A DNA stretch of 64,000 bases from Alphaproteobacteria bacterium (GCA_009929265.1 SAAU01000001.1:58245-122244); one strand, 5' to 3'; positions 23,132-42,586 are shown, counted from the first letter of the stretch. The notes: generated by a model from the letters alone, not told the origin. Program-made: numbers and translations.

Positions 23132-23133
23132 TT

Positions 23134-25055: not shown

Positions 25056-25058
25056 GCG

Positions 25059-25982: not shown

Positions 25983-25985
25983 AAA

Positions 25986-26678: not shown

Positions 26679-26886
26679 TTCCTAAATCCAGAAGTTCTTT
26701 GACGGTATTGCATTCTCTGATTTTGCTAACTTCTAAAAAGAGGTTAAGATTGCTACTAAAGGCCAAAAGAACGGCTGTTTCCGCCAAGGAATCCCATTCA
26801 TCCATATCTAAAAGAAAATCTGATTCGTTCAATTCGTCTGCTTGAATAGCTTCTTTAATTTCCTCTAAAAAGGCTTCTCTTTTCAT
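26662..26886 (-). CDS. acyl carrier protein (discrete, cluster-dedicated)
   Basis: 74 aa, acidic and four-helix in size. The phosphopantetheine attachment-like motif reads DMDEWDSLAETAVLLAF (DSL). Its position between the KAS III and the acyltransferase supports the call. Confidence 0.5.
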   Translation of the reverse strand: MKREAFLEEIKEAIQADELNESDFLLDMDEWDSLAETAVLLAFSSNLNLFLEVSKIRECNTVKELLDLGNAEYE

Positions 26887-26889
26887 TAT

Positions 26890-28038: not shown

Positions 28039-28979
28039 TTTATTTCCAATTTATATGAATCATAAAGGAGCGCTCTGCCGCCAAATTCTTGCTTTTGTTC
28101 AATAAGGCCTTCGTTTAAAAAGCGTCCTTCTTCTTCGGTTGAAATACCAAAATCAAAATAGTCTTTATCAGTATAGACTTCATTAATGAGCTTATCAAAA
28201 ACAAAATCAAGGGCCCCGATAGTGCGGCCGTCAAACGAGTTCATAATATACTGGGCATGAGCGACCTTGGGAGTTGAAAACATTAAGACGCCTGCCATCA
28301 TTTGTCCTTCTTTAAACGACGCATAAAGCTTTATATTTTCTGGGAATCTTTCCTTTAGAAGGTGAAGCTCTTGTGCACTATGAACAGGGGAGGCGTTATG
28401 TTTTTCTTTCAAAATATCCGTTAAAAGAGAAATGTAGGTTTCAAAATCTGTTGATTCTTTGAATTCAAGGCCTGCTTTTTCGGCTTTTTTAAGATTTCGT
28501 TTGCGTCGTGTATTAAAAGGAATTCTCTCTTTTAAATCGACAACTGTTGAAATATCTCTGCGATACAAAATAGCGTTATTTCTAAAAAGGGCATAAATAT
28601 CTTCGTCAGACGGATAGGTGTAATACAAGCTAGGAACCCGTTTATAAAGAAGTTCGGAAATGTTATTTTCTTTAAAAAAAATCTTTAAATCATCAAAGAT
28701 TTCTAAAGCATCAACGGCTCTTAAATCCTTGTTTGAAATAAGGCCCCCATAGGTTAATCCGCCATGTGAACGCACCTCAGTTCCATGTAAGGACGCCGGT
28801 AAAAGAGCAATCAAAGTTTCTTTTTTATAGAACATAAGCGAAAAATCATGAAATCTATCGGCATGATAGTCCATAAAATCTCGATTAAGCATAAACGTCC
28901 CATTTTTGGAAGAGGAAATAAAATCATTCCAAATCTTTTTATCTTGAGACGTATATTTAACAATCCTAATCATTTTCAT
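28035..28979 (-). CDS. hypothetical protein; possible GNAT/FemAB-fold acyltransferase
   Basis: 314 aa with no confident motif. It is sandwiched between the two KAS III genes with 4-nt and 14-nt overlaps. Confidence 0.25.
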   Translation of the reverse strand: MKMIRIVKYTSQDKKIWNDFISSSKNGTFMLNRDFMDYHADRFHDFSLMFYKKETLIALLPASLHGTEVRSHGGLTYGGLISNKDLRAVDALEIFDDLKIFFKENNISELLYKRVPSLYYTYPSDEDIYALFRNNAILYRRDISTVVDLKERIPFNTRRKRNLKKAEKAGLEFKESTDFETYISLLTDILKEKHNASPVHSAQELHLLKERFPENIKLYASFKEGQMMAGVLMFSTPKVAHAQYIMNSFDGRTIGALDFVFDKLINEVYTDKDYFDFGISTEEEGRFLNEGLIEQKQEFGGRALLYDSYKLEIK

Positions 28980-30036
28980 AATCTCGAAGGGGAGAACAAT
29001 AAATTTTATCTGTTGTAAGTAAAACAGAGGCCCAGCTTAACCCCACGCCAAAGCCACAAAGAAGAATTTTGTTTTTCTTTTGAGAGACGCTTTCTTGAAT
29101 CCTGTCAGAAATTGTGCACGGAATTGAGGCCCCACAAGTATTTCCATATTGTGTCAAAGTTGTAATAGGCGTTTTTTCCATTGGAATTTCAAGTGTTTTT
29201 GCTACGTTTTCAACAATAAATTTATTGGCTTGATGAAAGATAAAATGATCTATTTCTTCTTTCTTTTGTCCGGAATACTTGAAAAGTTCTGCCACATTTG
29301 GAGCAATTTCCCTTAATGTGAATTGGAAGATTTTCCCTCCATCCATTTTGGAGCCATACTTAAATGTGCCATCTTCATAAAAGTCTTCGGGTTTAGGAGG
29401 ATTCCGAAATCCACCATTTTCACAAACTAAGGCGTCGTAGTAGTGCCCATTTGATTGGATGTTGAAATACATATCATCAGCTGTTTCATCTCGTTCCAAC
29501 AAAGTTGCAGAACCGCCATCCCCAAAAACAGGGGCAGAATTATTTTGAAACATATCGGTGAATTTATTAAATGTATCACCCACCAAAAGAAGGACGCGTT
29601 TACAGCCATTATTTAACAACATAGAGGCTTGATAAATTCCCAATACATATCCAGAACAAGCTTGCGGGATGTCCATAACGACACAATTATCAGACAAATC
29701 AAGCTTCTTATGCAAGACATATGACGTGGCTGGCATCAAGAAATCAGGGGTATAACTGATGAATAAAAGGGCATCAATGGAGGCTCTATCTATCTTTAAT
29801 TTTGAAAGTAAATCATTTGCCGCGTTTTCACATAAATCAGCCGTTGTGACGTTGTCTTCAGCCACCCTGCGCTTTAAAAACCCAGAAGAATTGACAACTC
29901 TATCAATACGACGCTTATCTCCAAAATAAAGATTTTTATTATCTAGTAAAGAGATCTCCTTTGGGGGAACGACGGATGAAATACCAGAAATTTTAACGTT
30001 TTTTATACAAGCTTTTACCATGTTTGTTTGAACCAT
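28966..30036 (-). CDS. 3-oxoacyl-ACP synthase III (FabH-like KAS III) homologue, second copy
   Basis: 356 aa. An active-site Cys sits in the context PQACSGYVLGI. It also has HQANKFI, GNTCGASIP and CGFGVGLSWAS. It is the first gene of the minus-strand operon. Confidence 0.7.
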   Translation of the reverse strand: MVQTNMVKACIKNVKISGISSVVPPKEISLLDNKNLYFGDKRRIDRVVNSSGFLKRRVAEDNVTTADLCENAANDLLSKLKIDRASIDALLFISYTPDFLMPATSYVLHKKLDLSDNCVVMDIPQACSGYVLGIYQASMLLNNGCKRVLLLVGDTFNKFTDMFQNNSAPVFGDGGSATLLERDETADDMYFNIQSNGHYYDALVCENGGFRNPPKPEDFYEDGTFKYGSKMDGGKIFQFTLREIAPNVAELFKYSGQKKEEIDHFIFHQANKFIVENVAKTLEIPMEKTPITTLTQYGNTCGASIPCTISDRIQESVSQKKNKILLCGFGVGLSWASVLLTTDKIYCSPLRDYEND

Positions 30037-30216
30037 TCTTATTGAAATTAAATTTAGTGTTCTTCAAAGAACTTATATAGAATACTCTATTTTTATAATT
30101 AAAATCAAGAAGTATCTCCCTTTTAAATCGTAAATTTTTATGACAAAATAAGACATTATTCCCTTGTGAGAGTTTTAATTTTTGCTATACTTTAATAAAA
30201 CATCAAGGAGATAGCG

Positions 30217-31305
30217 ATGATTAAATTTTTAGACTTGCATAAGATAAATGAGCGGTTTCGGGTTGAAATGGATGCCAAAATAAAAGAGGTTTTGGATTCT
30301 GGTTGGTATCTTCAAGGGAAACAAAATGAAGCTTTTTCAAAGCATTTTGCTGATTTTTGTGGAACAAAATATGCTTTAGGTGTTGGAAATGGACTAGAGG
30401 CTTTAAGTTTAATTATTCAAGCGTATGGATTTCAAAAAGGAGACGAAATTATTGTGCCTGCCAATACCTATATTGCCACAATCTTAGCTATTTCAAAAAA
30501 TGGATGCACCCCTATTTTAGTGGAGCCAGATGAAGAGACTTTCTGTTTGAATCCAGATTTAATTGAGGCGAAAATTACCTCAAAAACAAAGGCTATTATG
30601 CCTGTTCATTTATATGGACAAGCAGCGGATATGGATAAAATAGGAGAACTTGCCAAAAAATATAATCTAAAGGTGATTGAAGATGCCGCTCAAGCGCATG
30701 GGGCTTTGTATAAGGGAAAACGTGTGGGAAATTTAGGGGATGCGGCAGGATTTTCTTTCTATCCTGGTAAGAATTTAGGCGCCTTGGGAGATGCAGGGGC
30801 CATTACGACAAATGATGAGGCACTTTATATAAAAGCAAAAGCTTTGGCCAATTATGGATCTGATAGAAAATATCATCATATTTATAAAGGGGAAAATTCT
30901 AGATTGGATGAAATTCAAGCCGCTTTATTGGATGTGAAGTTGCCTTATTTGGATGAAGACAATCAAAAACGCAGAGAAATCTCCCTTTATTATAGAGAAC
31001 ATATTAAAAACCCTTTAATTACTCTTCCTACAACGAAAGACGAATTGTCTCACGTTTGGCATGTTTTTGTTGTTCGGACGCAAGAACGGGAACGTTTGCA
31101 AAAGTATTTGGAAGAAAACGAAATTCAAACGAATATTCATTATCCTACGGCGCCACATCATCAAGGGGCTTATGTGGAACTTAAGGACTTATCCCTTCCA
31201 ATTACAGAAAAAATCCATCGGGAAGTAATGTCCTTGCCTATCTCTCCTGTTATGACTGAGAAGGAAGTTCAAAGGGTTGTAGACGTGGTCAATGCCTTTA
31301 AATAA
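30217..31305 (+). CDS. DegT/DnrJ/EryC1/StrS-family PLP-dependent sugar aminotransferase (FdtB/WecE-like)
   Basis: 362 aa. The N-terminus ([14 protein letters not shown]...) is typical of the DegT family. Conserved Lys-bearing motifs match the AAT fold-I sugar aminotransferases. Confidence 0.85.
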
Positions 31306-31326: not shown

Positions 31327-32022
31327 ATGTTTTTTATTAAACAACAAGTGAGGAAGTATGGGCATATTATTTCTTTAGGATATAATTGCGAAATTTCCTT
31401 TCAATTTTTTCTAAAATACCATTTTGTTGAAAGTAGTTTGTTTGCTTGGGTAAATTGTTTAAATGTTGATAATTTAATTTACGCTTTATCACATTTAGAC
31501 AAGGTTTGTTCCGGAGAAATTAAAAATATAAAACCAATGTGGAAATGTGAAAATACAGGAATCTGTTTCCATGGAAAAACATCTATGAAAATTATGATAA
31601 ACAATCTTTCTGCTCAAATTTTAAAAGAAGATAAAGAAGAATTGTTGAGCAGAGTTTCCTATTTAAAGAATAAATTTATTCAAACATCTTCCGATGGGAA
31701 AAAGAATCTTTACATATTTAAATATCCCTCAAAAGAAGAATCTGACATTACAGAGAAAATAAATCTTTTGTATGAAAAATTAGATAATCTTGTTGAAAAT
31801 GAATTTGATTTACTAATCATTTTGGAAAATGATTTTTGTTCTAAAATACAGGAAAATGTATTTAATCCTCATATTTTTATTCGGCGAGTTGATTTTTTTA
31901 CAAAAGAAGAAGATGTGACTTCTAAAGAAAATGATTTTAAACACTATAAAAAAATATTTAAAGAATTTCGTCCTGATTTTAAACAAAAAAAGAAGAAAAA
32001 ATTTAAGTTTGAGGAAATTTAG
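31327..32022 (+). CDS. hypothetical Lys-rich protein with conserved G-x-N/A-C-E...FxW motif (DUF1796-like?)
   Basis: 231 aa. The N-terminus reads SLGYNCEISFQF...SLFAWVN. It is paralogous to the next ORF. Confidence 0.3.
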   Translation: MFFIKQQVRKYGHIISLGYNCEISFQFFLKYHFVESSLFAWVNCLNVDNLIYALSHLDKVCSGEIKNIKPMWKCENTGICFHGKTSMKIMINNLSAQILKEDKEELLSRVSYLKNKFIQTSSDGKKNLYIFKYPSKEESDITEKINLLYEKLDNLVENEFDLLIILENDFCSKIQENVFNPHIFIRRVDFFTKEEDVTSKENDFKHYKKIFKEFRPDFKQKKKKKFKFEEI

Positions 32023-32023
32023 A

Positions 32024-32770
32024 GTGAAGAAAAAATATGATTTGATTTTTGGGATAGGGGAAGCGTGTTCTTGCACTCAAGCTTTAAGAGGGGCTGGGCT
32101 TCAGATTAAATCTTTTCCTTTCGATTGGCTTTATGGATCTGATTTTTTAGGTCGGATTGAAATTTTAAGCTCTTGTTTTAAGGATTTTTTTAAAAAAGAA
32201 GATTTGGTTGACACAAAAACAACAAATTTGGATAAGAAAAATTTATGTAAAATTTATAAAAATAAAAGAAATAAAATTGTTTTTAATCACGATTTTCTTG
32301 AAAAAATGCCTTTTGATGAAGCGTATCCTAGCATTTTTGAAAAATATCAAAGGCGGATAGGGCGGCTATTTTCTTTAATTAAACAGGCAAAAAGTTTTTT
32401 AGTTGTTTACATTGAAACCCCAAACGCTGAAGAAAAATTAACAGATAAAAAAGATTTAAAAAAAGCTTTTAATTTTTTGCAAAAGGCTTTCCCCCATAAA
32501 AAGATAGATTTAATTTACTTTTCTAATACGACAAAGGCCTTTGATAAACAGAGTTTTGAAGAGGTTTCCAAGCATATTCTTTTAGCACGTTTCAATTATA
32601 GTAGCATAAAGGAAAATGACCCTGATTATGCGATAAATGGAAAGCTTATTAAAAAGATATTAAGACAGAAATTTCGTCTAAAAATGTCTTTCAAAGAAAG
32701 GATTTATCAGATCTTAAGAAAAAGGGGAAAGAAACTCTTAAGACGACTCGAAAAAATTAAAAAAAGTTAG
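32024..32770 (+). CDS. hypothetical Lys-rich protein, paralogue of 31327-32022
   Basis: A GTG start at 32024 has GAGGAAA 8 nt upstream. The N-terminus reads GIGEACSCTQAL...FPFDWLYGSDF, parallel to the upstream paralogue. Confidence 0.3.
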   Translation: MKKKYDLIFGIGEACSCTQALRGAGLQIKSFPFDWLYGSDFLGRIEILSSCFKDFFKKEDLVDTKTTNLDKKNLCKIYKNKRNKIVFNHDFLEKMPFDEAYPSIFEKYQRRIGRLFSLIKQAKSFLVVYIETPNAEEKLTDKKDLKKAFNFLQKAFPHKKIDLIYFSNTTKAFDKQSFEEVSKHILLARFNYSSIKENDPDYAINGKLIKKILRQKFRLKMSFKERIYQILRKRGKKLLRRLEKIKKS

Positions 32771-33014: not shown

Positions 33015-34733
33015 ATGAACACCCCCTCTGTTAAAGTTTCCTTTTTAGGAGGATGCAATCCTACGAAAATTGGAGCGAATTCTACTCTTTTTACTGTCAA
33101 AAAAAATAATAAAAATCTTAATGTATTGGTCGATTTAGGCTCTATGTTTGTTGACGATATTTCAACAGAATATAATAGGGTTATGCCAGATTTGATTCCT
33201 TATTTAGGCAAAATTGATGATCTGTTCATTACCCATGGGCATTTGGACCATATTGGAGCCATTTCGGATTATCTTTTCTTGATTAAAAAACTAAGAGAAG
33301 AAGCAACTTTTGGCGACAAAAATGACTTAAAACTTCCGGTTTTACACGTCAATAAATTCACCTATAAAGCTATTAGTGAAGGAATTGAACCAGCTGTTAG
33401 AGACCTTTTTGAAGAAATCCCTGTTAAGTTTTTTGATAAAGAATCCGTTATTGAAGTGAGTGAAGATTTTAAGGTTCATCCGATTGCTGTTTCTCATTCC
33501 ATTCCAGAAGCATCAGCTTTTTTAATCGAAACAGAGGCCGGAAATTTCCTTCATATGGGAGATTATAAGCTTTCCAAAATTCAGCTCGGGCATTCCTTTG
33601 ATTTCAATAGATTAAAGACGCTTTGTAAAGAAAAAGGGGTCGATTATTTAATTGATGACGCAACAAGGGCTGGATTAAGCGCTACAGGTGTTCCGGAAGA
33701 GGAAATTCGAAGTGGGATTTTACACCTTTTTGAAAAAAACAAATCCAAGCGTATTATTGGCTCTGTTATTTCTTCAAATATGGAGGCTTTATTTAACTTT
33801 GTAAACGCAGCAGAAAAATCAGGGAAAAAGGCGGTTATTCTTTCAGGAAAACGCCTTATTTCTTTTTATGAGATTCTTTTAGAATCAAAGCTTATTAAAG
33901 AAGACACGTTTTCTATTCCTATTTATTTATGCAATAAAAATATGACTGGAAAAGAAACAAAAGAAATCCAAAATTTGGAAAGAAATGAGCAGGCTTGGTT
34001 GGTCTCGGGATGTCAAAACGAGACGTTTTCAAGAATGAATTTGATGAGCTTAGGGCGGGATGATAAAATCAATTTATGCTCTGAAGATGTCGTCGCTTTA
34101 ATGCAGGCATGTATCCCTGGAAATGAATGCGAATATGAACGGTTAATCGAAGATTTATTGCATATTGCCTCCCCAAAAATCTATGCAACAAGAGATCAGT
34201 CTAATCGCTTTAAAGAAGTGACGTATTTGAATGATATTTATATTTCAGGTCATGCAAAAAAAGAAGATAAGCAAAAATTATTTGATTTCATCCTTAAAAA
34301 CAGTAAAGCAAAGACAAAGCTCATTCCTTTCCATGGAAGTTATTTCCAACTTAAGGCGCTTGAAAAAGTGGGAAGAGAATCGGGATTAGGAATTGTTAAA
34401 CGTAGAGTTAATGAGGATTTATACTTCTCGGAAGAGTCTTATTTTACCAAAAAAAGAGAAAGTTCCTCCTACATCGCTGTTAAATATGTCAAAGTTAATA
34501 AGAAAAACACGCCCTCCTATCACCTTGTTAATTTAACAAGAAAAGGCGAAATTGAGCCTGTTTCTTTGATTTACTCAGAAGATCAGGATATGTTTGATCT
34601 TTATAAAACAAAGGCTGTTTCTAATAATTACGAAGAGATTTATGGAAAACTGGAAGATGAAGAAGCCTTAAAGAAAAAGGAAAAAGACATTTTAATTTAC
34701 AGAGAATTAAAGCTATCTGCGAAAGGAATATAA
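33015..34733 (+). CDS. rnj: ribonuclease J (metallo-beta-lactamase/beta-CASP)
   Basis: The MBL motif reads THGHLDHIGA. RNase J-like blocks include HSIPEASAFLIETEAGNFLHMGDYK and RIIGSVISSNMEALFNFVNAAEKSGKKAV. The ATG at 33015 follows AAAGGAG. The ORF-track start at 32916 is a TTG. Confidence 0.6.
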   Translation: MNTPSVKVSFLGGCNPTKIGANSTLFTVKKNNKNLNVLVDLGSMFVDDISTEYNRVMPDLIPYLGKIDDLFITHGHLDHIGAISDYLFLIKKLREEATFGDKNDLKLPVLHVNKFTYKAISEGIEPAVRDLFEEIPVKFFDKESVIEVSEDFKVHPIAVSHSIPEASAFLIETEAGNFLHMGDYKLSKIQLGHSFDFNRLKTLCKEKGVDYLIDDATRAGLSATGVPEEEIRSGILHLFEKNKSKRIIGSVISSNMEALFNFVNAAEKSGKKAVILSGKRLISFYEILLESKLIKEDTFSIPIYLCNKNMTGKETKEIQNLERNEQAWLVSGCQNETFSRMNLMSLGRDDKINLCSEDVVALMQACIPGNECEYERLIEDLLHIASPKIYATRDQSNRFKEVTYLNDIYISGHAKKEDKQKLFDFILKNSKAKTKLIPFHGSYFQLKALEKVGRESGLGIVKRRVNEDLYFSEESYFTKKRESSSYIAVKYVKVNKKNTPSYHLVNLTRKGEIEPVSLIYSEDQDMFDLYKTKAVSNNYEEIYGKLEDEEALKKKEKDILIYRELKLSAKGI

Positions 34734-34748
34734 ATTTCTAAAATATGC

Positions 34749-34777
34749 TTGACAAGAATAAATGACTATGCTATTAT
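34749..34777 (+). promoter_or_regulatory. near-consensus sigma70 promoter (TTGACA, 17 nt, TATTAT) driving the phage-derived module
   Basis: TTGACA lies at 34749-34754 and TATTAT at 34772-34777, with an exact 17-nt spacer. It sits about 90 nt upstream of the terminase start. Confidence 0.5.
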
Positions 34778-34868
34778 TCTGTAAAATGTCGCAATAGGTG
34801 GGTTAGTTAAAGATTAACTTCAAAGAAAAATAAAAAAGGGAAGAATCGAAAGGTTCTTTCCTTTTTCT

Positions 34869-36203
34869 ATGTTTAAAGAAAGGAAGAACGTGTCAATTAA
34901 ATTAGAAATTCCTGTTCTGTTTTCTCCTCTTTTAAAAGAAAAAAAACGCTATAAGCTTTATTATGGAGGGCGGGCAGGGGGAAAAAGTTATGCTTTTGCC
35001 GAAAGCATCCTCCTTAAAGGGCGAATGGAAAAGCTTTTTATTGTCTGTGTACGTGAAATTCAAGAGAGTATTAAAGAATCTGTTTATAAGCTGCTTTCCG
35101 ATAGAATTGAAAAATTAGGCCTCTCAGATTACAAAATTTTTGAAAGAAAAATCGAAAATAAGCTAACAGGAACGAAAATTATCTTTAAGGGATTAAGAGA
35201 TCAGGATGCCTCAAAGATAAAGTCCTTAGAAGGGGCGGATATTTGCTGGATTGAAGAAGGGCAATCTATTACAAAGAAAAGCTGGAATATTTTAGATCCA
35301 ACCATTCGAAAGGAAGGCTCCGAAATCTGGATTTCTATGAATAGAGAAAATGAAAACGATGCTCTTTGGATGATTTTAGGCAAACATCCCGATAAAAGGA
35401 CGTTGGTTCAAAAAGTTAATTTTATGGATAATCCCTTCTGTCCCGAAGAAATTAAATTTCAGGCCAAAAAATGCCTCAAAGATAGACCAGAAGAATATCC
35501 ACATATTTGGCTGGGAGAGCCTAAATCTCAAGCCGATAAGACGTTAATTTCATCTGGATTGATCTTAAAAGCTTTTCAAACGAAAGGAATTCTTTCCAAA
35601 AGTCCACTTGTGATTGGAGTCGATATTGCCAGATTTGGATCAGATAAAAGTGCTTTTGTTTACAGAAAAGGCCGGTCGTGTTTTAAGTATGAGCTTTTGT
35701 CCTCTCAAGATACAGTGGATATTGCCAATCGATTAACAGCTTTAATCTATGAGGTGCATCCCCATAAGATTTTCTTAGATTTGGGAAATTCCGGGGCAGG
35801 GGTCTACGATATCCTAAATGATAGAGGGTTTTCCGAGATTGTTGTTGGGATAAATTTTGGTGCTAAAGCCATTCAAAAGGATAGATATGTCAATAAACGT
35901 GCCGAAATGTGGGACGGTATTCGATTATGGCTTTCGGGAAAATTGCCCGTTGAGCTTTTAGAACATGAAGGCGTGCTTTCTGATTTGATTTCGGTTCAAA
36001 AAAAGTATGATAGCTATGGGCGATTACAGCTTGAAAGCAAGGATGAACTTAAGAAGAGGTTAGGGCATTCTCCTGATATTGGGGATGCTTTAGCTTTGAC
36101 CTTTGCAGAGCCTGTTTTCGAAAAAACACCGCCAAAGCTTTACAAATCTGGTGTTTCTTTTGAAGATCTTTTTCAAGAAGAAAAGCTCGATTTATCCTGG
36201 TGA
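34869..36203 (+). CDS. phage terminase large subunit (PBSX-like family)
   Basis: 444 aa. The Walker A-like ATPase motif reads YYGGRAGGKSYAFAE. A C-terminal nuclease-like half contains acidic residues (VIGVDIARFGSDKSAF). Confidence 0.75.
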   Translation: MFKERKNVSIKLEIPVLFSPLLKEKKRYKLYYGGRAGGKSYAFAESILLKGRMEKLFIVCVREIQESIKESVYKLLSDRIEKLGLSDYKIFERKIENKLTGTKIIFKGLRDQDASKIKSLEGADICWIEEGQSITKKSWNILDPTIRKEGSEIWISMNRENENDALWMILGKHPDKRTLVQKVNFMDNPFCPEEIKFQAKKCLKDRPEEYPHIWLGEPKSQADKTLISSGLILKAFQTKGILSKSPLVIGVDIARFGSDKSAFVYRKGRSCFKYELLSSQDTVDIANRLTALIYEVHPHKIFLDLGNSGAGVYDILNDRGFSEIVVGINFGAKAIQKDRYVNKRAEMWDGIRLWLSGKLPVELLEHEGVLSDLISVQKKYDSYGRLQLESKDELKKRLGHSPDIGDALALTFAEPVFEKTPPKLYKSGVSFEDLFQEEKLDLSW

Positions 36204-36346
36204 GCGTCTAAAAAGAGTAATAAAAATTCTTATTTTAAATACTAGTTGTATTTGTTTTTTGAATAGATTACACTAAAAACGCGTAAGCTTGTTGTTGTCA
36301 AGACGTCTTAATTTTTTAAGGCGTCTTTTTTTATTGGGAGTTTTAA

Positions 36347-36598
36347 ATGTTAAATGCCGTTTCGGATCGGATTTTCGTTAGGTTAAAAGAGGCGCCTAAA
36401 AAAAGTTCTCTTATTCTAACTGATTCTCTAAAAGGGATTTCAAATCAAGGAATTGTAGAAAGTGTAGGGCCTCTTGTTTATTCTGTTAAAAAAGGACAAG
36501 AGGTTCTTTTTCATTGCTTTGATGAGCTGCCAACCCCTGAAAAAGGAGTGGTTGTTATTCGAGAATCAAGCATTTTAGGAATTTATGAAAATGAGTAA
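36347..36598 (+). CDS. GroES-like 10-kDa co-chaperonin-fold protein (phage-encoded?)
   Basis: 83 aa. The N-terminus reads DRIFVRLKEAPKKSSLIL and the C-terminus reads VVIRESSILGIYE. These run parallel to GroES DRVIVKR...GGIVL and MSESDILAIVE. The 3' end overlaps the next ORF. Confidence 0.35.
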   Translation: MLNAVSDRIFVRLKEAPKKSSLILTDSLKGISNQGIVESVGPLVYSVKKGQEVLFHCFDELPTPEKGVVVIRESSILGIYENE

Positions 36599-38444
36599 AT
36601 TATCAAAAAATACATCACTTTCTTTTTGGCAAAAACGAGTTTTGGATGCCGAAAAGAAATATTATGATTACCACAATCTTGTCGATAAAACGCGAAAATT
36701 TTATAAGGATAGTGAATCAACGTTAGGAAAATCAGGACATTACAATATTTTTTGGTCCTCTGTTGAAACATTAAAGCCCTTTCTTTACTTTAAGTGTCCC
36801 GAAATTCATATCAAACGCTTAAATAAAGAGGCTTCTAAAGGCGAAAAATATGCTTGTAAAATTCTTGAAAAAGCTTTGAAATGGAGTGTTTCTCAAGCCG
36901 ATTTCGATAGTGTTTTGAAATATGCAAGAAATGATTTTCTTATCTCTGGCATGGGGCTTCTTTGGGAAAGATATCAAGGTGAATTTACAAAAATTGACGG
37001 CGAAGATATTAAAGTTTCCGAAAATGTCTTGTCGCAATATGTGGATCCGTCTTGCTTTATTGCCGATTGTGATAATGTTGGAATTTGGGAGGATGTCACT
37101 TGGGTGGCTCGACGCGTTTATATGTCTTTAAGGGAGATTGAAAAAAGTTTTGGAAAAGAAAGTTTGGAAAGCTTACAAATCAATCTAAAAGAAGATGAAA
37201 AAGACTTTAAATCCTATGTCGTTTACGAAGTTTGGGATAAAGTTACCAAAAAAGTCTATTGGTTTGAAAAGAATGGCACAAAATTCTTCAAGGTTTTAGA
37301 GGATCCTTTGCATTTGAAGGACTTTTTCCCGTGTCCAAAGCCCTTGTTTGCGACCCTAACGAATGATAGCATTATTCCTATTCCTGATTATATTTTGATT
37401 AAAGAACTCTTAGATGAGTTAAATGGGGTTAATTACCGAATGAGGATGATTACGCAGGCGTTTAAAGTCTCTGGAGCCTACGATGGATCTTTCCCCGATT
37501 TACAAAATATTTTGGAAAAAGAAAATGTATTGGTGGCCTTAAAAGACTTTATAAAACTTAAGGAAAACGGCGGAATTAAAGGGGTTATCGACTTTATTCC
37601 TTTGGAACAATATGTCGCAGCCCTATCAGAGCTTGCTGAACGCAGGAAGGATATTATGATGCAAATTTATAATATCACAGGAATTTCTGATATTATGAGA
37701 GGGGCTTCTAACCCACAAGAAACTGCCACTGCCGTTGTTCGAAAAACAAACTTTGGGAACCTAAGAAACCAAGACCGGCAAAATGATATGCAACGCTTTA
37801 TTGCGGATCTTTACCGTCTAAAGGCCGAGATGATTGCAGAGCTTTTTTCAAAGGATTTATTGCTTTCATTTCTTTCTAAAGAAGAACGACAAGATGAGGA
37901 GGCCTCAAAAGAAGCTCTTCGTATTTTACGGGAAGAAAAAATCCGCCAAATGAGCTTTCTAATTGGAACAGATGGCTTGTTTAACCAGGAAGAAGAGCTT
38001 AAAAAGACATCAGATGTGCTTTCTTCGTTAAATGGAATCGTTCAAAATGCGCTTCAAAATGTATCTGTGCAGCCTCTCTTGTTGCTTTTTTATAAGGAAA
38101 TGGTGGATGTGGTTGCGCAATACTTGCCCAAAGCAAGATCCCTTGAGAGTGTGATTGAATCGACGTTTGATAAGATTTCAAAAGAGCTTTCCTCAAAAGA
38201 AAATCCAGGGCCTAATCTTGGATTTTTACTTGAGCAAGAAAAACTTAAAAACACCTTTATGATTGAAAAAGAAAAGCTTGAAATTAAAAGAAAAGAGCTT
38301 CTCTTAAAGGAAAATGAGTTTAAATCAAAGCGAGATCTCACTCAAAAAGAAATGGCCTTGCAAGCACACTTTAAAACAGAAGAGTTAAAAGAAGATAAGA
38401 AGGTTGATAGCAATATTTCAACAGGGTTTGTGAAAGATTTTTAA
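36585..38444 (+). CDS. putative phage portal protein with C-terminal coiled-coil
   Basis: 619 aa. It sits immediately after the terminase and has a long C-terminal helical, Lys/Glu-rich region. I recognised no diagnostic motif, so the call rests on position and size. Confidence 0.3.
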   Translation: MKMSKLSKNTSLSFWQKRVLDAEKKYYDYHNLVDKTRKFYKDSESTLGKSGHYNIFWSSVETLKPFLYFKCPEIHIKRLNKEASKGEKYACKILEKALKWSVSQADFDSVLKYARNDFLISGMGLLWERYQGEFTKIDGEDIKVSENVLSQYVDPSCFIADCDNVGIWEDVTWVARRVYMSLREIEKSFGKESLESLQINLKEDEKDFKSYVVYEVWDKVTKKVYWFEKNGTKFFKVLEDPLHLKDFFPCPKPLFATLTNDSIIPIPDYILIKELLDELNGVNYRMRMITQAFKVSGAYDGSFPDLQNILEKENVLVALKDFIKLKENGGIKGVIDFIPLEQYVAALSELAERRKDIMMQIYNITGISDIMRGASNPQETATAVVRKTNFGNLRNQDRQNDMQRFIADLYRLKAEMIAELFSKDLLLSFLSKEERQDEEASKEALRILREEKIRQMSFLIGTDGLFNQEEELKKTSDVLSSLNGIVQNALQNVSVQPLLLLFYKEMVDVVAQYLPKARSLESVIESTFDKISKELSSKENPGPNLGFLLEQEKLKNTFMIEKEKLEIKRKELLLKENEFKSKRDLTQKEMALQAHFKTEELKEDKKVDSNISTGFVKDF

Positions 38445-38470
38445 CCCTTAATACAAGAAAAAGGTGAGGT

Positions 38471-38689
38471 ATGGTAAAAAGAAAAACGCCTCCAAAAGAT
38501 ATGAAAAAAATCTGGTTAGAGGTTTTTGATAAAATGGGTGGAATTGAAGGATTGCTTTCTTGGGCAAATGAAAATCAAAATGAATTTTATAAAATTTGCA
38601 CAAAGCTTTTTTCAATTGAAATAAAAGATAAAGATGAAAAGCCAAATCAGGTTCTTGTTAAATTTTTGGAAGATAAGAAGTTAAATTAA
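38471..38689 (+). CDS. hypothetical phage-module protein (72 aa)
   Basis: The ORF is co-directional and tightly packed within the phage-derived block. Confidence 0.2.
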   Translation: MVKRKTPPKDMKKIWLEVFDKMGGIEGLLSWANENQNEFYKICTKLFSIEIKDKDEKPNQVLVKFLEDKKLN

Positions 38690-38757
38690 GTTATTTTATT
38701 AACAAGCTATAAAAGAAGGTTAAATTTATTTTAGCCTTCTTTTTTTATGGAGGAATT

Positions 38758-38985
38758 ATGGCCTTTATTAACAGCCTATTTCAGACAGATTTTGAGTTGC
38801 CCAATGGTGAAAAAGTCTCTTCTTTAAAAGAAGCAGAAGAAAAAATGAACCAGCTTGGGATAACTTTATCAAGCAATTATTCAGAGGATTATTACAAGAA
38901 AAAACGTCTGAGTAATACGAAAAAAGAGAAGGAAGATCTCTTCAATCTCTTTATTTTAAACTACAAAAGGAGTATTTGGTTATGA
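38758..38985 (+). CDS. hypothetical phage-module protein (75 aa)
   Basis: The ORF is co-directional within the phage block. Confidence 0.2.
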   Translation: MAFINSLFQTDFELPNGEKVSSLKEAEEKMNQLGITLSSNYSEDYYKKKRLSNTKKEKEDLFNLFILNYKRSIWL

Positions 38986-39084
38986 CAACTAAAACAAGAG
39001 AAGAATTAGAAAAACTTTTTTCTTCTTTGCCGAAAACTATAAAAGAAGAAAAACATAAAGAGGGGGAGAAATCCTCAAGTCATT

Positions 39085-39519
39085 TTGGAGAAATTAGCTT
39101 CCCTTTATCAGGTTTCATTTCCATCAAAGCCCCCTCTTCAAAAAGGGGAAAATAAGGATAAACCCCTTCTTCAGAAGGCTTTATCTTTACTAAAATCCTT
39201 TGATGACGCGGTTGATGAAGCGGGGACAAAAAAGCACCCCTTCTTTAATGACGTTTCTTTAGAAATGGCTTCCCTTTTGAAAAATAAGCTCGTCTCCTCT
39301 TTGGAAGAGGCTTATGAAAAAGCCGTTTGGCTTAACCCAAAAATTAGAAATTCTTTAATCGAAGAAAAAACGCTTCAAACAATAAAGAAAAAAGTCGAAG
39401 AATCCGAAAAGGCCAAGGAAGCCTCCTTTTCGGTTAAGGGAAAAATGACTGGACAATCAGATCTTTCAAAGCTTTCAACGAGAGATCTTTTGGAATTTCA
39501 ATTCCGGAATTTAGACTAA
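39085..39519 (+). CDS. hypothetical helical phage-module protein (possible scaffold)
   Basis: 144 aa, alpha-helical and Lys/Glu-rich. An overlapping ORF at 38983-39156 in another frame may mean a frameshifted single gene. Confidence 0.2.
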   Translation: MEKLASLYQVSFPSKPPLQKGENKDKPLLQKALSLLKSFDDAVDEAGTKKHPFFNDVSLEMASLLKNKLVSSLEEAYEKAVWLNPKIRNSLIEEKTLQTIKKKVEESEKAKEASFSVKGKMTGQSDLSKLSTRDLLEFQFRNLD

Positions 39520-39546
39520 ATTTTAACTTAAAAAAAGGAAAACAAA

Positions 39547-39795
39547 ATGAGTAATTCAAATTATAATGATATTTTTACGACAACATTAGAAAGCAGAACA
39601 GGAAAATTGGCTGATAATGTTTCCGATAGCAACGCTCTTCTTTCTAGATTGAGAGAAAAGAAGAATATGGAGAATATCCAGAAACTACCCTTCCAGAAGA
39701 TGGCACTTGGTCCAATTATGTTTCAACAGGTTCTTCTGGAAGTGGGACTGTTTTGGCGTTGCGCTTTAAAAAAAATAATCGAGAAACACGTATGA
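39547..39795 (+). CDS. hypothetical phage-module protein (82 aa)
   Basis: The ORF is co-directional within the phage block. Confidence 0.2.
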   Translation: MSNSNYNDIFTTTLESRTGKLADNVSDSNALLSRLREKKNMENIQKLPFQKMALGPIMFQQVLLEVGLFWRCALKKIIEKHV

Positions 39796-39840
39796 AAAAC
39801 ATTGCGTTAAACTACTTTATTAAAGTAAAGGAGGAAGAAA

Positions 39841-40191
39841 ATGTCGCATAAAATTACCCCTGATGGGATTTCTATTACGCAAGGAGATTCTCTATATCTT
39901 CCTATTACTTTTAATGGGATGGATATTACGAATGCCACCTTAAATATGCAGGTGAGCTCTCAGGATTTGAAGACCCTTTTCATTGATAAGAAAGTCTCAA
40001 CACATATCGATGCTGCAAACGGGAAAACGGCTCTTAACTTAATGCCGTCAGATATAAATATTCCCGTTGGCGACTATGTGACAGATATGGAACTTTGCCT
40101 TTTAGATGGTCAAATCTTGACCTTTTACCCTGAAAGAACAGAAAAACAAGCCTTTTTTAGAGTCCTTGCCCAAGTGACAAAGGAGGAATAA
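39841..40191 (+). CDS. hypothetical phage structural protein (beta-rich, 116 aa)
   Basis: AGGAGG-like RBS (AAGGAGGAAGAAA) sits before the ATG. Predicted beta-strand-rich composition. Confidence 0.25.
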   Translation: MSHKITPDGISITQGDSLYLPITFNGMDITNATLNMQVSSQDLKTLFIDKKVSTHIDAANGKTALNLMPSDINIPVGDYVTDMELCLLDGQILTFYPERTEKQAFFRVLAQVTKEE

Positions 40192-41112
40192 ATGTCTGAA
40201 ATGAATTTATTTTTTGATGAAACAACGGGATTAAGCTTGGACATCAAAGAAGAAGCCTTAGACGTCTCAATAAATGAGGCAGAATTAACTGTATATCCAG
40301 AAGGCCTTAGCTTTATTCATAATGGAGAAGATGAAATAAAGGCCTTTGTTGAAAAGGTTTCAAAACCCGAGCTCAATACTTTTGTTTTAGAAGAAAAAAA
40401 GCCTGAATTAACAGCGTTTACTCAAGAAAAATTAACTGCGTTAGGCACTCAATATCAAACCTATAACACTCAATTAAATCAGCAAATAGATGAGAATAAG
40501 TCCGAAATGGAAGCCCTTTATAGCGCAACAAATACGCTAAAAGAAGAGGCCGCTTTACAAAAAGAGAAAGCCTTTCTTTGGGCGACAAAAATGGATGGAG
40601 AGGTTGAGGAAGGCCAAGGGTATAGCTCAAAATACTATGCATCGCTTTCCGATGAAAAAGAAGACAAGTCAAACAAAATTGCCCTTTTTCATGAAACGCC
40701 AGATGATACGCATTATCCTTCCGAAAAGCTGGTTTATGACGCTTTAGCCAATAAAATAAATTTGGAGGCGTCAAATCTATCTGATTTAGGTAAGAAAAAT
40801 TTGTCAGAATGGTCTCTTCCTGGGGACAGTTTTATAAATGTGACGCCAATTGCCTCCGGAGGAACTTATACAGCACCAAAAAATGGCTATTTTTCTTTTT
40901 TAGCAACAGCTCTTGATTCAACGGCCAGTATGATTTGCTTTAATGATGAGAGGCGGTTTTATCAATCGGTTTTTTATTGCAATGGATCGTCCCTTTTCCT
41001 CGGGCTAACAATTCCAATTCGGCAAGGTCAAACCATAACCTTTAGTTTTAAGAGTATCGAAAATCTGAATGTTTCATTCATCTATACAAAGGGAGAAGAG
41101 CTATGTTTATAG
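40192..41112 (+). CDS. hypothetical phage structural protein (306 aa; capsid or receptor-binding candidate)
   Basis: An acidic N-terminal half is followed by a beta-rich C-terminal region. It is translationally coupled to the upstream ORF (stop-start TAAATG). Confidence 0.25.
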   Translation: MSEMNLFFDETTGLSLDIKEEALDVSINEAELTVYPEGLSFIHNGEDEIKAFVEKVSKPELNTFVLEEKKPELTAFTQEKLTALGTQYQTYNTQLNQQIDENKSEMEALYSATNTLKEEAALQKEKAFLWATKMDGEVEEGQGYSSKYYASLSDEKEDKSNKIALFHETPDDTHYPSEKLVYDALANKINLEASNLSDLGKKNLSEWSLPGDSFINVTPIASGGTYTAPKNGYFSFLATALDSTASMICFNDERRFYQSVFYCNGSSLFLGLTIPIRQGQTITFSFKSIENLNVSFIYTKGEELCL

Positions 41113-41465
41113 GCTATCAAAATGGGAAAATTGTAGCTCAAGCTTTAACACAAGAAATTCTTGAATCCAAGCTTTGCGTTTCATTTGATGAAATTGAAGA
41201 GACAAGTCAAAATGTGATTGAAAAAGAAGGAAAACTTTATCTTGAAAATGAAATACCTTTAACGACAAAAGAAGAAATTGAAGAAAAAAGAAAATATCTT
41301 TATCAAATAAAAGTCGACTGTTTAACAGCCGAAATTTCAAGATTAAGAGACGAAATTCAAACTTTAGAAATTCAAGAGAAAATAGCAGATTTAATTTCAA
41401 AAAGGAATGAAATTGTTGATGAAATAAAGCTTCAAAATCCTTACCCAGATGAAGGAGAAAGCTAA
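41103..41465 (+). CDS. hypothetical coiled-coil protein (120 aa)
   Basis: Heptad-like E/K/I-rich sequence. It overlaps its neighbours by a few nt. Confidence 0.2.
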   Translation: MFIGYQNGKIVAQALTQEILESKLCVSFDEIEETSQNVIEKEGKLYLENEIPLTTKEEIEEKRKYLYQIKVDCLTAEISRLRDEIQTLEIQEKIADLISKRNEIVDEIKLQNPYPDEGES

Positions 41466-41728
41466 TGGCCACAAAATCAGAAAATGCGCTTTTAGCTCGA
41501 ATTGATGAGCGAACTTTAGAAATTCAAAAAAAGCTAGATAAACATATCCTTTTGATGGATTCGCTTTCTATAAAGGTGAATGAGCACGAACTTATTTTAT
41601 TTGGAAAAAAAGGAAATGATGGGCTGATTTCAAAAGTTGAATATCATGACAAAATTTTACTTAAAGCCATTGCTATTGGAGGGTTTTTACTTGTTTCTTT
41701 TGAATTTTTGAAAGGGGTTTTATTATGA
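41465..41728 (+). CDS. holin-like small membrane protein (C-terminal TM)
   Basis: 87 aa with a single C-terminal TM segment (AIAIGGFLLVSFEFL). It overlaps the endolysin start by 4 nt, which is the classic position for a holin or antiholin. Confidence 0.3.
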   Translation: MATKSENALLARIDERTLEIQKKLDKHILLMDSLSIKVNEHELILFGKKGNDGLISKVEYHDKILLKAIAIGGFLLVSFEFLKGVLL

Positions 41729-42078
41729 ATTTTTTTACAAAAAAAGAGCTTTCTTGCCCTTGTTGTGATTCCTATTTTTTCAAAGAAGAAACTTTAGAAA
41801 TGCTAGATGAAGCCCGAAAAAGGGCAGGGATTGCCTTTATTATCTCAAGCGCTTGTCGGTGCGAAAAACATAATAAAGAGGTGGGCGGAAGCCCGTTATC
41901 GGCGCATAAAACAGGGGAGGCTGTGGATCTTATTTTTCAAAATTCAAACGAGGCTTTTCTCATTTTGGAAAGCCTTATTTTTGTTGGATTTAGGCGGATA
42001 GGAATCAATTTCAAAAAGGGATTTATTCACGTGGATTCTTCAAAAACACTTCCCCAAGAGGTGTTATTTCACTATTAA
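41725..42078 (+). CDS. endolysin, peptidase M15A-type (L-alanyl-D-glutamate / D-Ala-D-Ala peptidase fold)
   Basis: Zn-ligand pattern: SACRCEKHNKEVGGSPLSAHKTGEAVDL (H-x6-D) and a later FIHVDS His. The protein is 117 aa. Confidence 0.7.
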   Translation: MNFFTKKELSCPCCDSYFFKEETLEMLDEARKRAGIAFIISSACRCEKHNKEVGGSPLSAHKTGEAVDLIFQNSNEAFLILESLIFVGFRRIGINFKKGFIHVDSSKTLPQEVLFHY

Positions 42079-42246
42079 TGACATAGTTTAAGGAGTTATT
42101 ATGAAAGAAAATTTAATTAAATTTTTAAAAGAAAATAAAAAGAAAATCATTACCTTTATCCTTTCGGGGATAGTGGCTGTCTTTGGGATTACCCTTCAAG
42201 AGGGGGCGCTTGATTCCTTAACTTCCCTTTTAAATGGGTTGATTTA

Positions 42247-42450
42247 ATGCAAAATTTTCTAATCGGTTGTTTTTTAGGAGGGGGCTTAGGCTTCCTCCTC
42301 TTTTTTTATGCCTACAAAAAGGGACGAAAAGATGAAAAAATCTATCAAAAATCAAAAAATCTACACCTCATATTGGAGCAAGAAAAAATTGAAAGCAGGC
42401 CTTGTCTTTCTGATGATGAACTTTATGACTGGTTGCGCGGCAAAAAATGA
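42247..42450 (+). CDS. putative i-spanin (Rz-like; N-terminal TM)
   Basis: 67 aa. The N-terminal TM segment reads FLIGCFLGGGLGFLLFFYAY and is followed by a charged helical segment. It sits immediately after the endolysin. Confidence 0.3.
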   Translation: MQNFLIGCFLGGGLGFLLFFYAYKKGRKDEKIYQKSKNLHLILEQEKIESRPCLSDDELYDWLRGKK

Positions 42451-42586
42451 ATGCCTTTGCCCTTTTTTCCCAAAACCTTCCCCAAAAATTGTCCAAGAAA
42501 TAGATTGCTCCAAAATGAAAGAGACATGCCTATGGCTTCAAGAACTTTATAAACTTAATAAAAAATTGGATCTGTGCCAACCCTAA
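42308..42586 (+). CDS. putative o-spanin (Rz1-like lipoprotein) overlapping the i-spanin in the +1 frame
   Basis: A basic n-region and hydrophobic core precede a lipobox-like FMTGC. The mature part is Pro/Cys-rich (CLCPFFPKPSPK...C...C). It starts inside the 42247 ORF in a different frame and extends beyond it, matching the overlapped Rz/Rz1 architecture. Confidence 0.3.
   Translation: MPTKRDEKMKKSIKNQKIYTSYWSKKKLKAGLVFLMMNFMTGCAAKNECLCPFFPKPSPKIVQEIDCSKMKETCLWLQELYKLNKKLDLCQP

Follow-up and report, generated by a model that had tools for sequence, protein, structure and literature searches.

A probably defective copy of a phage late-gene island between a ribonuclease J gene and a hydrogenase operon in an alphaproteobacterial genome

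Phage late operons controlled by antitermination classically have a terminator placed behind a constitutive promoter. In phage lambda, the promoter of the PR'-tR' unit is near-consensus and constitutive; its transcript is a short leader RNA that terminates ahead of the late genes, Q binds an element between -35 and -10, and the promoter is followed by a pause element resembling a -10. Phage T4 encodes a GroES-like co-chaperonin, gp31; the head-tail cluster of the gene transfer agent (GTA) RcGTA is HK97-type and siphovirus-like; and purifying selection is established for the defective prophages of enterobacteria. The gene order terminase large subunit (TerL), Cpn10, P22-type portal is found in temperate phages and prophages of gut and rumen bacteria (MT835830.1, loci L002, L006 and L007, and 80 metagenome loci). 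CcGTA, which is under GafYZ control, has a regulator-binding element between -35 and -10, and an antiterminator bypasses terminators inside the cluster (PMC11150451), and FpGTA of Faecalibacterium prausnitzii is a podovirus-like GTA-like element with a candidate TerS and two loci, whose particles were shown experimentally to carry 8.4-8.9-kb host DNA (PMC12946183). Enterobacterial defective prophages are treated in a review (PMC8987985).

The locus described here occupies positions 34749-42586 of a 64-kb stretch of alphaproteobacterial DNA (64,000 nucleotides, "the window"), and all its genes and transcription signals lie on the plus strand. It comprises a promoter, TerL, a Cpn10-like gene, a P22-type portal gene, small ORFs and an M15 endolysin cassette, and it sits, as the earlier note on this DNA had placed it, between an RNase-J-like gene (TIGR00649 172 bits, under the cutoff of 400; named ribonuclease J by NCBI) and a NuoE/NuoF/[FeFe]-hydrogenase (hyd) operon. 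This module is very probably a defective copy of a late-gene island of about 13.6 kb that goes back to a family of temperate phages whose portal is P22-type and whose genes run TerL-Cpn10-portal-scaffold-capsid-tail-fibre-lysis. A podovirus-like morphology would be expected from this portal type.

TerL is intact (34869..36203) and matches PF04466 (2e-32), TIGR01547 (1e-38) and phrog_3717 (1e-53), which confirms its first identification; its true start is likely the GTG at 34893, after a GGAAG Shine-Dalgarno motif. The GroES-like ORF is indeed a Cpn10/GroES-like co-chaperonin gene (36347..36598; PF00166 33.9 bits, cutoff 21.1), and the protein of 619 aa, formerly called portal-sized, is an intact P22-type portal (36585..38444; phrog_12082 2e-118; PF16510 above cutoff). 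The position of the Cpn10-like gene between TerL and portal is a hallmark of this phage family. As with T4 gp31, a Cpn10-fold protein is encoded beside head genes and, by analogy, is plausibly needed together with host GroEL to fold the capsid protein; unlike gp31, it is weakly similar to GroES at 33.9 bits and is known from its gene.

The synteny extending from TerL, Cpn10 and portal through the capsid gene to a 511-aa gene is seen in L002, L006, L007 and the 80 metagenome loci, and the module agrees in both homology and gene order with complete (pro)phage genomes. Its TerL is 54-62% identical and its portal about 40-54% identical to those of the gut and rumen phages; more distant portal relatives occur in Myxococcus phage Mx8 and the Brucella Tb-group phages. 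In the gut and rumen phages TerL is preceded by an S24-type repressor gene, early genes and a TerS-like gene (the repressor in most family loci that have at least 3 kb of upstream sequence), whereas the island adjoins the host RNase J gene and has no repressor, early or TerS-like genes. Profile searches with Pfam, PHROG and NCBIfam found no integration, immunity or replication genes within the module borders, and homologues of the TerS-like or early genes of the family are absent from the whole 64-kb window. No att-like direct repeats flank the module (the best is a 10-mer in A/T-rich sequence). Annotation of about 15-64 kb of the window showed housekeeping genes as neighbours and no integrase, replication or capsid-redirecting gene.

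The odd gene content of the window copy has a simple cause, namely two deletions. We compared the window lineage (A) with the lineage of a sister metagenome-assembled genome (MAG; lineage B, L032), which aligns to the window in three blocks of 97.5-99% identity; these blocks define both deletions and their microhomologies. In L032 the island has genes for the scaffold, the major capsid protein and a Collar tail fibre, along with four to five for tail or virion proteins. A 302-bp deletion (junction 39069-39074, 6-nt microhomology AAATCC) frameshifted the scaffold gene, leaving a scaffold-like pseudogene (38983..39519) whose two pieces are ORFs of 59 and 144 aa. A 5,450-bp deletion (junction 39666..39668, 3-nt microhomology TAT) took away everything in the capsid gene after codon 41, genes of 184, 226, 511, 146 and 217 aa, and ~190 codons from the start of the Collar fibre gene, so that the capsid stub now runs out of frame into the ~60 codons that remain of the fibre gene; by their L032 matches, the deleted genes are those for the capsid, a tail protein, virion proteins and the tail collar fibre. 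What is left on either side is a 5' remnant of the major capsid gene with 41 codons (39547..39668; phrog_9953 profile positions 4-47 of 329, a profile that the intact L032 gene matches at 9e-110) and a 3' remnant of the Collar-domain tail-fibre gene with ~60 codons (39669..39851), which matches the L032 fibre gene; an 82-aa ORF (39547-39795) consists of the capsid remnant and out-of-frame read-through. The fragments left in the window thus match L032 genes lost by deletion, and the capsid and tail genes are missing because they were deleted. Both deletions are read from MAG assemblies, and both are recent.

Loss or breakage of the scaffold, capsid, tail and fibre genes, and with them of virion formation, bears out the degraded prophage that the earlier note had listed among its options, and a defective prophage with pseudogenes is the appropriate annotation for the region. 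The statement that no capsid, tail or integrase genes are recognisable holds for the integrase but not for capsid and tail, of which fragments of the major head protein and the Collar fibre persist beside those of the scaffold. Likewise, the "about eight small ORFs" exist, but three of them are gene fragments, because the capsid 5' end, the fibre 3' end and the frameshifted scaffold can be recognised in them. Both deletions might in principle be artefacts of metagenome assembly that hide an intact 13.6-kb island: the source is a MAG, and the contigs of the sister lineage break within or beside the island, so that the region seems to be hard to assemble or polymorphic. However, microhomologies of 6 and 3 nt are typical of illegitimate-recombination deletions and far below assembler k-mer overlaps, the contig of the window is 222 kb long and the fusion ORF is annotated in the NCBI record, which makes an artefact extremely unlikely.

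Several further small ORFs are conserved. An ORF of 72 aa (38471..38689) is 47% identical to its L003 homologue, and one of 75 aa (38758..38985), found in 59 loci, stands ahead of the scaffold gene throughout the family. An ORF of 116 aa (39841..40191; phrog_1084, a family without assigned function) follows the fibre gene throughout the family. The next ORF, of 306 aa (40192..41112), is a near-orphan with short partial homologues only; its gene position and a low-confidence structure model with a long helix and a C-terminal beta domain suggest that it is probably a distal fibre or receptor-binding protein. An acidic ORF of 120 aa (41103..41465) has a dN/dS of 0.31. The lysis cassette had been described as complete, and its endolysin is well founded: a Peptidase_M15_3 protein (41725..42078; Peptidase_M15_3 1e-15, phrog_894 3e-25) that is identical in the sister MAG. 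The holin and spanin parts are candidates, proposed from transmembrane (TM) segments, a lipobox-like MTGC motif and weak PHROG matches: an 87-aa ORF with one C-terminal TM segment as putative holin (41465..41728), a 48-aa TM protein as tentative holin or antiholin (42101..42247), and an overlapping pair (42247..42586) of 67 aa (N-terminal TM, i-spanin-like) and 92 aa (MTGC, o-spanin-like). With this pair the phage-derived DNA ends on the right, and the hyd operon comes immediately after it, as it does in lineage C.

Intact in the window copy are TerL, the Cpn10-like gene, the portal, two fibre-associated ORFs and the lysis cassette. Particle assembly, excision and replication would not be possible for such a copy. 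Some residual function of the surviving ORFs (TerL, portal or lysis genes) may nevertheless exist, because they are intact and have a very low dN/dS. One could go further and regard the compact module as a unit under selection for packaging plus lysis, or for lysis only, for instance in programmed lysis or abortive infection once the late regulator is provided by a related phage. It would agree with this that TerL, Cpn10-like, portal and lysis genes are intact, as are the terminator and the promoter with its conserved spacer, and that lineages A and B differ mainly by synonymous substitutions (26 against 2 nonsynonymous in TerL, 43 against 5 in the portal). The selection signal, however, either antedates the intact state of lineage B or cannot be told apart from it; the deletions look accidental, because they break the reading frame at their junctions and leave pieces of genes behind; the two lineages share no evident retained subset, TerL being what the sister lost; and PADLOC found no defence family. 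We therefore consider such a unit highly unlikely, and a GTA-like role, which had been suggested along with a domesticated packaging-plus-lysis unit, fails for the window copy because no capsid can be made.

Packaging genes kept without capsid and tail genes could also point to a phage satellite of the PICI or P4 type, to which a helper phage would provide capsid and tail. We give practically no credence to this proposal, which had likewise been raised from the sequence: the module has neither an integrase, primase or other replication genes, regulators and capsid-remodelling genes of its own nor att repeats, the annotated 15-64 kb supply no integrase, replication or capsid-redirecting gene, and the missing genes were demonstrably deleted and not absent by design.

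While the window copy is best read as a defective prophage, the intact island in the sister lineages looks host-maintained and is of more value for follow-up. The ancestral island of about 13.6 kb had no integrase, repressor, replication or TerS-like genes, and its borders are identical where visible, on the left in three of three lineages and on the right in two. On the left, the promoter follows the rnj stop in the window, L032/L033 and L028 alike; on the right, hyd follows o92 both in the window and in L034, and the sister MAG contigs stop short of this border. Synonymous divergence of the island (dS 0.08-0.45) is comparable to that of the flanking host genes (rnj 0.17-0.24, hydB 0.20, hydA 0.24), and the dN/dS of the TerL, portal, capsid, tail and endolysin genes (0.015-0.15; 0.015 for TerL against lineage C and 0.027 for the portal between A and B) is as low as that of the hydrogenase genes. 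Each of the three lineages carries a different disabling deletion: besides those of the window, the sister MAG has lost 11 bp from TerL and lineage C 76 bp from the 511-aa gene, each gene being split as a result, and these lesions appear to represent independent, ongoing decay. Simple decay of "junk" does not explain such lesions in all three lineages together with strong long-term purifying selection.

The parent island could be a domesticated, GTA-like element. A host-maintained island of this kind, a producer of podovirus-type GTA-like particles or another co-opted late cassette, of which the window would be a recent loss-of-function ("cheater") allele, is possible, although we consider it rather unlikely. 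Besides the absent autonomy genes, host-like dS and low dN/dS, it is favoured by the number of lesions, one or two per lineage and far below the expectation for long neutral decay of ~13 kb, by the rnj-promoter-terminator-TerL junction common to L003/L004 (TerL 74% aa), where the relative divergence of the proteins (36% for RNase J, 74% for TerL) agrees with the rate ratio measured among the close lineages, and by the precedents of a podovirus-like GTA (FpGTA) and an antitermination-controlled GTA cluster. On the other hand, all three sampled lineages are disabled, each differently, the element is known from sequence alone, with a border in the L003 lineage seen on the left side only, TerL dS is about twice that of the flank, which hints at recombination with active phages importing "purified" variation, and defective prophages in general can show purifying selection. 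Conservation as deep as L003 is suggestive, and the more specific proposal, that the parent island, maybe shared by descent with the L003 lineage, is a host-domesticated podovirus-type late-gene element of uncultured anaerobic Alphaproteobacteria, with lesioned copies as recurrent short-lived loss-of-function alleles, is decidedly speculative.

Comparison with known systems points in both directions. Like cryptic prophages, the island is a cluster fixed at one locus, stripped of autonomy genes, vertically inherited, with low dN/dS and occasional deletions; unlike them, it has kept no random gene subset but a late operon that is coherent and complete and has a conserved promoter and terminator of its own. 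Among the close lineages it resembles GTAs in the absence of replication, integration and self-transfer genes, in its fixed locus, co-divergence with the host and purifying selection, but a complete head, tail and packaging set is not found, since the window has no major capsid, tail or fibre gene and the TerL of the sister MAG is frameshifted. It shares with FpGTA the genes for TerL, portal, scaffold, capsid, short-tail parts, fibre/receptor-binding protein, holin and endolysin and the absence of replication genes; it differs in having one locus and no TerS, in being known from its genes and, in the window copy, in lacking the capsid gene. With RcGTA/CcGTA it has in common that these are ~14-kb alphaproteobacterial late-gene clusters and that a conserved spacer and three terminator-like hairpins are present, whereas its portal is P22-type, its order TerL-Cpn10 and its promoter near-consensus rather than activator-dependent. 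The comparison with alphaproteobacterial GTA clusters suggested earlier yielded no RcGTA-type head-tail homology in the window or L032, where no protease, tail tube or tape-measure matches were found. Membership in the RcGTA type (Rhodogtaviriformidae) was rejected on the P22-type portal and the phrog_9953 capsid.

The promoter ahead of TerL, noted from the start, is of the sigma-70 type (34749..34777): TTGACA (34749-34754) and TATTAT (34772-34777) are separated by 17 nt, with an extended -10 TG (TGcTATTAT). It is the best promoter-like site within 32.5-43.5 kb. A match of 11/12 is by itself unexceptional (three in the 64-kb window, 1.6 expected by chance), and the promoter is credible because it is conserved in L028, L032, L003 and L004. 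In L003/L004 the conserved block, AAAATATGCTTGACAAGnATAAATnAnnATGnTATT, includes the spacer between -35 and -10, which is unusual for a plain promoter and makes the spacer a candidate regulator element. The remark that so strong a housekeeping-type promoter is unusual for a repressed prophage overlooks a strong intrinsic terminator about 50 nt past the promoter and before TerL, a 15-bp hairpin (34833-34866, z = -4.2) whose T-run stops at the annotated TerL ATG. The predicted leader of ~85 nt (34784..34871) starts with a small hairpin (~34801-34819). This two-hairpin layout is common to the window, L028, L032 and L003, with compensatory changes in the terminator stem between lineages, and is retained between the window and L003/L004 (TerL 74% aa) even though the leader sequences are not alignable; no Rfam family matches the leader. 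Two further terminator-like hairpins with T-runs lie in the gap between TerL and the Cpn10-like gene (36300..36327, z = -5.6), comparable to a site after TerL in L002, and ahead of the 75-aa ORF (38711..38746, z = -4.2).

A promoter followed by intrinsic terminators before and within the late genes, three hairpins in all, is the layout of Q/GafZ-type operons, and this arrangement, conserved in a distant relative, fits an antitermination-controlled late operon. In a model built on architecture and conservation, the near-consensus promoter would fire constitutively, most transcripts would end as the ~85-nt leader before TerL, two further terminators would act inside the operon, and full expression would need an antiterminator of the lambda Q or CcGTA GafZ kind, loaded at the promoter and acting via the conserved spacer. 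A phage-derived cluster that combines internal terminators with a regulator site between -35 and -10 is a precedent (PMC11150451). The annotated island contains no antiterminator candidate, and a general homology search, not specific to Q or GafZ, found no early-gene homologues of the family in the window. Because an antiterminator would be required and none was found in the window, the surviving genes probably stay mostly unexpressed unless one is provided by a related phage or by an unlinked regulator of the host. A domesticated parent island could conceivably serve as a new, non-RcGTA gene transfer agent or as a "trans-activatable" late cassette, switched on by an antiterminator from a related phage, and either role would be controlled by the constitutive promoter and terminators.

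A late-gene-only island with a P22-type portal, at one locus in several lineages and with a conserved promoter-terminator switch, is worth following. If functional, it would be a second structural GTA-like type in Alphaproteobacteria, beside the podovirus-like FpGTA of Firmicutes, and a compact system for studying how cells silence lethal late operons; if not, it is a clean natural example of the speed and the lesion types by which such islands are disarmed. The island resembles lambda PR'-tR' in its promoter, terminated leader and late genes behind them, but it has the host RNase J gene instead of a Q gene upstream, its operon opens with TerL rather than with lysis genes, and its pause element is a guess. 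A second -10-like hexamer follows the -10, TAAAAT in the window and TATACT in L003, which is at most suggestive.

The phage-derived module at 34749-42586, between the RNase-J-like gene rnj and the hyd operon, is a recently crippled copy of an island of phage late genes only, and the observation made in the earlier note is confirmed as a whole. The window comes from the metagenome-assembled genome (MAG) of a low-GC, uncultured "Alphaproteobacteria bacterium" with locus tags EOM53_*, and its portal protein is 100% identical to NCB49145.1 (221,961-bp contig). Profile searches and NCBI gene names recovered every gene that had been listed, including TerL (34869-36203; PF04466, 2e-32; TIGR01547; phrog_3717, 1e-53), a Cpn10-like ORF (36347-36598; PF00166, over the cutoff), a P22-type portal (36585-38444; phrog_12082, 2e-118) and a Peptidase_M15_3 endolysin (41725-42078). 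Small membrane or lipobox-like ORFs lie on both sides of the endolysin and could, we infer, be holin and spanin candidates. The statement that no capsid gene is recognisable holds for the full gene only: a capsid 5' fragment persists inside 39547-39795, where an 82-aa ORF covers just positions 4-47 of the 329-position major-head-protein profile of PHROGs. AlphaFold, run on single sequences, gave no usable model for the 116-aa protein (pLDDT 39.5) or the 306-aa protein (44.7), and a search for homologues of the latter gave almost none, too few for an alignment. PADLOC assigned no defence-system family to the island and its left neighbours, and a search for flanking direct repeats of the att type found none.

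Comparison with a sister MAG, GCA_028706035.1 (lineage B; the window is lineage A), which was reached through exact cluster look-ups, explains the missing genes. Its 17,526-bp Logan contig (L032) aligns with the window in three blocks of 97.5-99% identity, separated by two deletions. The first, of 302 bp, took L032 8395-8690 and a copy of AAATCC out of the gene for a 279-aa scaffold-like protein and shifted its frame. The second, of 5,450 bp, comprises L032 9291-14737 and a copy of TAT and runs from codon 41 of the capsid gene to about codon 190 of the gene for a 251-aa Collar tail fibre. The latter deletion removed the capsid gene (phrog_9953, 9e-110) together with those for a 184-aa protein, a 226-aa tail protein, a 511-aa virion protein, a 146-aa acetyltransferase-like protein and a 217-aa virion protein, and left behind an out-of-frame capsid-fibre fusion. 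The module is thus the product of deletions and not a designed "compact" unit. Among the interpretations offered earlier, only that of a degraded prophage stands for this copy, since each feature tested in it agrees with a defective prophage remnant. A satellite is contradicted on every criterion, and a gene transfer agent (GTA) requires a complete structural set, which the window copy lacks. Nor is this copy RcGTA-like, because its portal is of the P22 type and an HK97-type capsid, protease, tail tube and tape measure are absent.

With both deletions restored, the parent island measures about 13.6 kb and reads promoter, TerL, Cpn10, portal, 72 aa, 75 aa, scaffold and capsid, followed by the 184-, 226-, 511-, 146- and 217-aa proteins, the Collar fibre, the 116-, 306- and 120-aa proteins and the lysis genes. 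Its borders are shared with a third lineage (C; ENA sample ERZ18242372), of which one contig, L028, is 92.6% identical. On the left, the window, the sister MAG and lineage C all have the rnj stop codon, 16-18 nt and then the -35 element; on the right, the window and the lineage C contig L034 have the lysis genes with the hyd operon (NuoE/NuoF/[FeFe]-hydrogenase) directly after them, a comparison confined to these two as the contigs of the sister MAG stop short of this border. Within the visible borders no lineage has integrase, repressor, replication or TerS-like genes, and the early and TerS-like proteins of the related phage family have no homologue across the 64-kb window. The ORFs annotated from about 15 to 64 kb serve housekeeping or polysaccharide synthesis, and none encodes an integrase.

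The related phage loci place this gene set in context. A full capsid gene (323-340 aa) occupies the matching position in all those compared, namely MT835830.1, the prophages L002, L006 and L007, which carry S24-type repressors, and the closest relative, L003/L004. An RNase J gene lies upstream of TerL in none of 80 metagenome loci (TerL 54-63% identical); those with 3 kb or more of sequence before TerL usually have an S24 repressor there, 2-6 kb away and on the other strand. The wider family therefore consists of ordinary temperate phages, from which the island derives as a set of late genes only. Some of these loci are organized differently: in L072 (4172-7399 and 10001-17953; also L078, L084 and L107) a block of Cpn10, portal, Collar fibre and 116-aa genes lies about 3 kb upstream of a block running from a TerS-like gene and TerL to the capsid and 511-aa genes. 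Each of the rearranged genes is single-copy, so that these prophages have a split or permuted late module. In L007 (1-4569), genes for a Phage_tail_APC tail protein, a lysozyme and RNase H lie upstream of the S24 repressor, which could mean that prophages lie in tandem or that the integration point divides a late operon.

Substitution patterns (Nei-Gojobori; pairs among lineages A, B and C) indicate that purifying selection on the island is as strong as on core metabolism, unlike the expectation for long-dead DNA. For TerL (A-C), dN/dS is 0.015 (dS 0.45; 50 synonymous and 4 nonsynonymous changes), for the portal (A-B) 0.027 (0.13; 43 and 5), for the capsid (B-C) 0.036 (0.31; 37 and 6), for the 511-aa gene (B-C) 0.051 (0.19; 53 and 11), for the Collar fibre (B-C) 0.034 (0.25; 34 and 5) and for the endolysin (A-C) 0.028 (0.26; 16 and 2). 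The host genes (all A-C) give 0.028 for hydB (0.20; 71 and 8), 0.026 for hydA (0.24; 64 and 7) and 0.14 for RNase J (0.24; 72.5 and 45.5). Island dS spans 0.08-0.45 overall, and divergence is therefore about equal to that of the flanks. Each sampled lineage nevertheless carries a disabling lesion, and a different one: the 302-bp and 5,450-bp deletions in A; in B an 11-bp deletion (CTTTAAGGGGT; L032 4199-5522, corresponding to window 35181-35191, with the bases retained in the window and lineage C), which splits TerL into 124 and 336 aa; and in C a 76-bp deletion (L034 2061-3519, corresponding to L032 12187-12262; 3.4x coverage, possibly an assembly error), which breaks the 511-aa virion gene into pieces of 260 and 234 aa. 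We take the island to have functioned, or at least to have been under selection, through most of the divergence time and to be undergoing repeated, recent inactivation. Another possibility is that recombination with active relatives brought in some of the "purified" variation; the dS of TerL (0.45; 34869-35600 against L028), about twice that of RNase J (0.24) and hydB (0.20), fits such an import and may itself result from recombination with related phages.

The promoter that had been described is present (TTGACA at 34749, 17 nt, then TGcTATTAT). Matches to 11 of the 12 sigma-70 consensus positions occur three times in the window against 1.6 expected by chance, so that the match alone is not significant; the other two lie at 21658 (+) and 7518 (-). 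The -35 element, spacer and -10 element are, however, nearly identical between the window and L003/L004 despite only 74% protein identity of TerL, and the flanking sequence is not alignable. In all lineages the leader has a small hairpin followed by a 15-16-bp hairpin with a U-run ending at the TerL start. The leader and terminator folds have z-scores of -4.2 to -6.4, and the stems show compensatory changes between lineages. The window leader (34785-34868) has about 10 differences in 60 nt from the sister MAG, with genomes 97.5% identical overall, yet the pairing of both hairpins is preserved; the leader is identical between the sister MAG and lineage C. Further terminator-like hairpins follow TerL (36300-36327) and the 72-aa ORF (38711-38746), and hairpins are also found directly before TerL in L007 and after it in L002. 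No Rfam family matched the leader at gathering score. Among viral contigs the promoter block gave 17 matches, none beside island-gene homologues, which we regard as chance matches. A host sRNA gene serving as attB is a less likely identity for the promoter-leader-terminator unit, given that conservation between the window clade and L003 covers the promoter but not the transcript.

This layout matches that of late operons under a promoter-loaded antiterminator, such as lambda Q, which acts via a site between -35 and -10. The binding element of GafZ in the Caulobacter GTA cluster likewise lies between -35 and -10, and GafZ lets transcription pass a terminator that follows the first gene of that cluster (PMC11150451). 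With a terminator between promoter and TerL, the strong constitutive promoter, which had been called unusual, is therefore not anomalous; without the putative antiterminator it would yield mainly the leader of about 85 nt, with a predicted start near 34784. The island itself has no candidate antiterminator gene, and genes of 147-205 aa beside the S24 repressor in L002, L006 and L007 are candidate regulators in related prophages. As rnj has no terminator of its own before the island promoter, read-through from it would stop at the leader terminator. In architecture, fixed position and selection the parent island resembles domesticated clusters of the GTA type, and FpGTA provides a podovirus-like precedent (PMC12946183). 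Seeing the parent island as a domesticated GTA-like element of podovirus type under antitermination control is nonetheless a speculative reading, which we consider improbable.

The left neighbour (33015-34733) is named ribonuclease J by NCBI and belongs to the RNase J family, with 172 bits against a TIGR00649 cutoff of 400. It is a divergent protein without the Pfam domains RMMBL and RNase_J_C, which RNase J matches of about 30% identity (e.g. from Romboutsia) do carry. A scan for empty sites among genome contigs with the RNase-J-like protein returned only distant RNase J (Monoglobus, Pelagibacteraceae), and a word-index protein search gave one close relative, P0121, which led to lineage C. 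In L003/L004 an RNase-J-like gene of 540 aa, with 36% identity to that of the window, directly precedes promoter, terminator and TerL, with a full head-tail set downstream; the L003 contig stops before its right border. The shared adjacency has two possible explanations. Either the island is old and was inherited along with rnj, with which the approximately 4-5-fold rate ratio of RNase J to TerL in the close lineages is compatible (36% against 74% identity), or this phage group integrates beside rnj.

Membership of the element was also considered for the RNase-J-like gene and for two ORFs on its left, and rejected, as they have no homologue in about 90 related phage loci and the former is a ribonuclease J by NCBI annotation. 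These two ORFs (31327-32770; 27-29% GC) encode a 231-aa protein of no family and a 279-aa DUF1796 protein (papain-like peptidase). Compared with lineage C, the DUF1796 gene shows 10 nonsynonymous and 2 synonymous changes, for a dN/dS near 1; it overlaps the upstream ORF in the window, and a shorter, 248-aa gene is called in the sister MAG. Directly left of the locus lies a large polysaccharide/LPS-type cluster (20866-31305) with glycosyltransferases, a radical SAM/SPASM protein, FabH-like ketosynthases, a DegT aminotransferase and FdtA.
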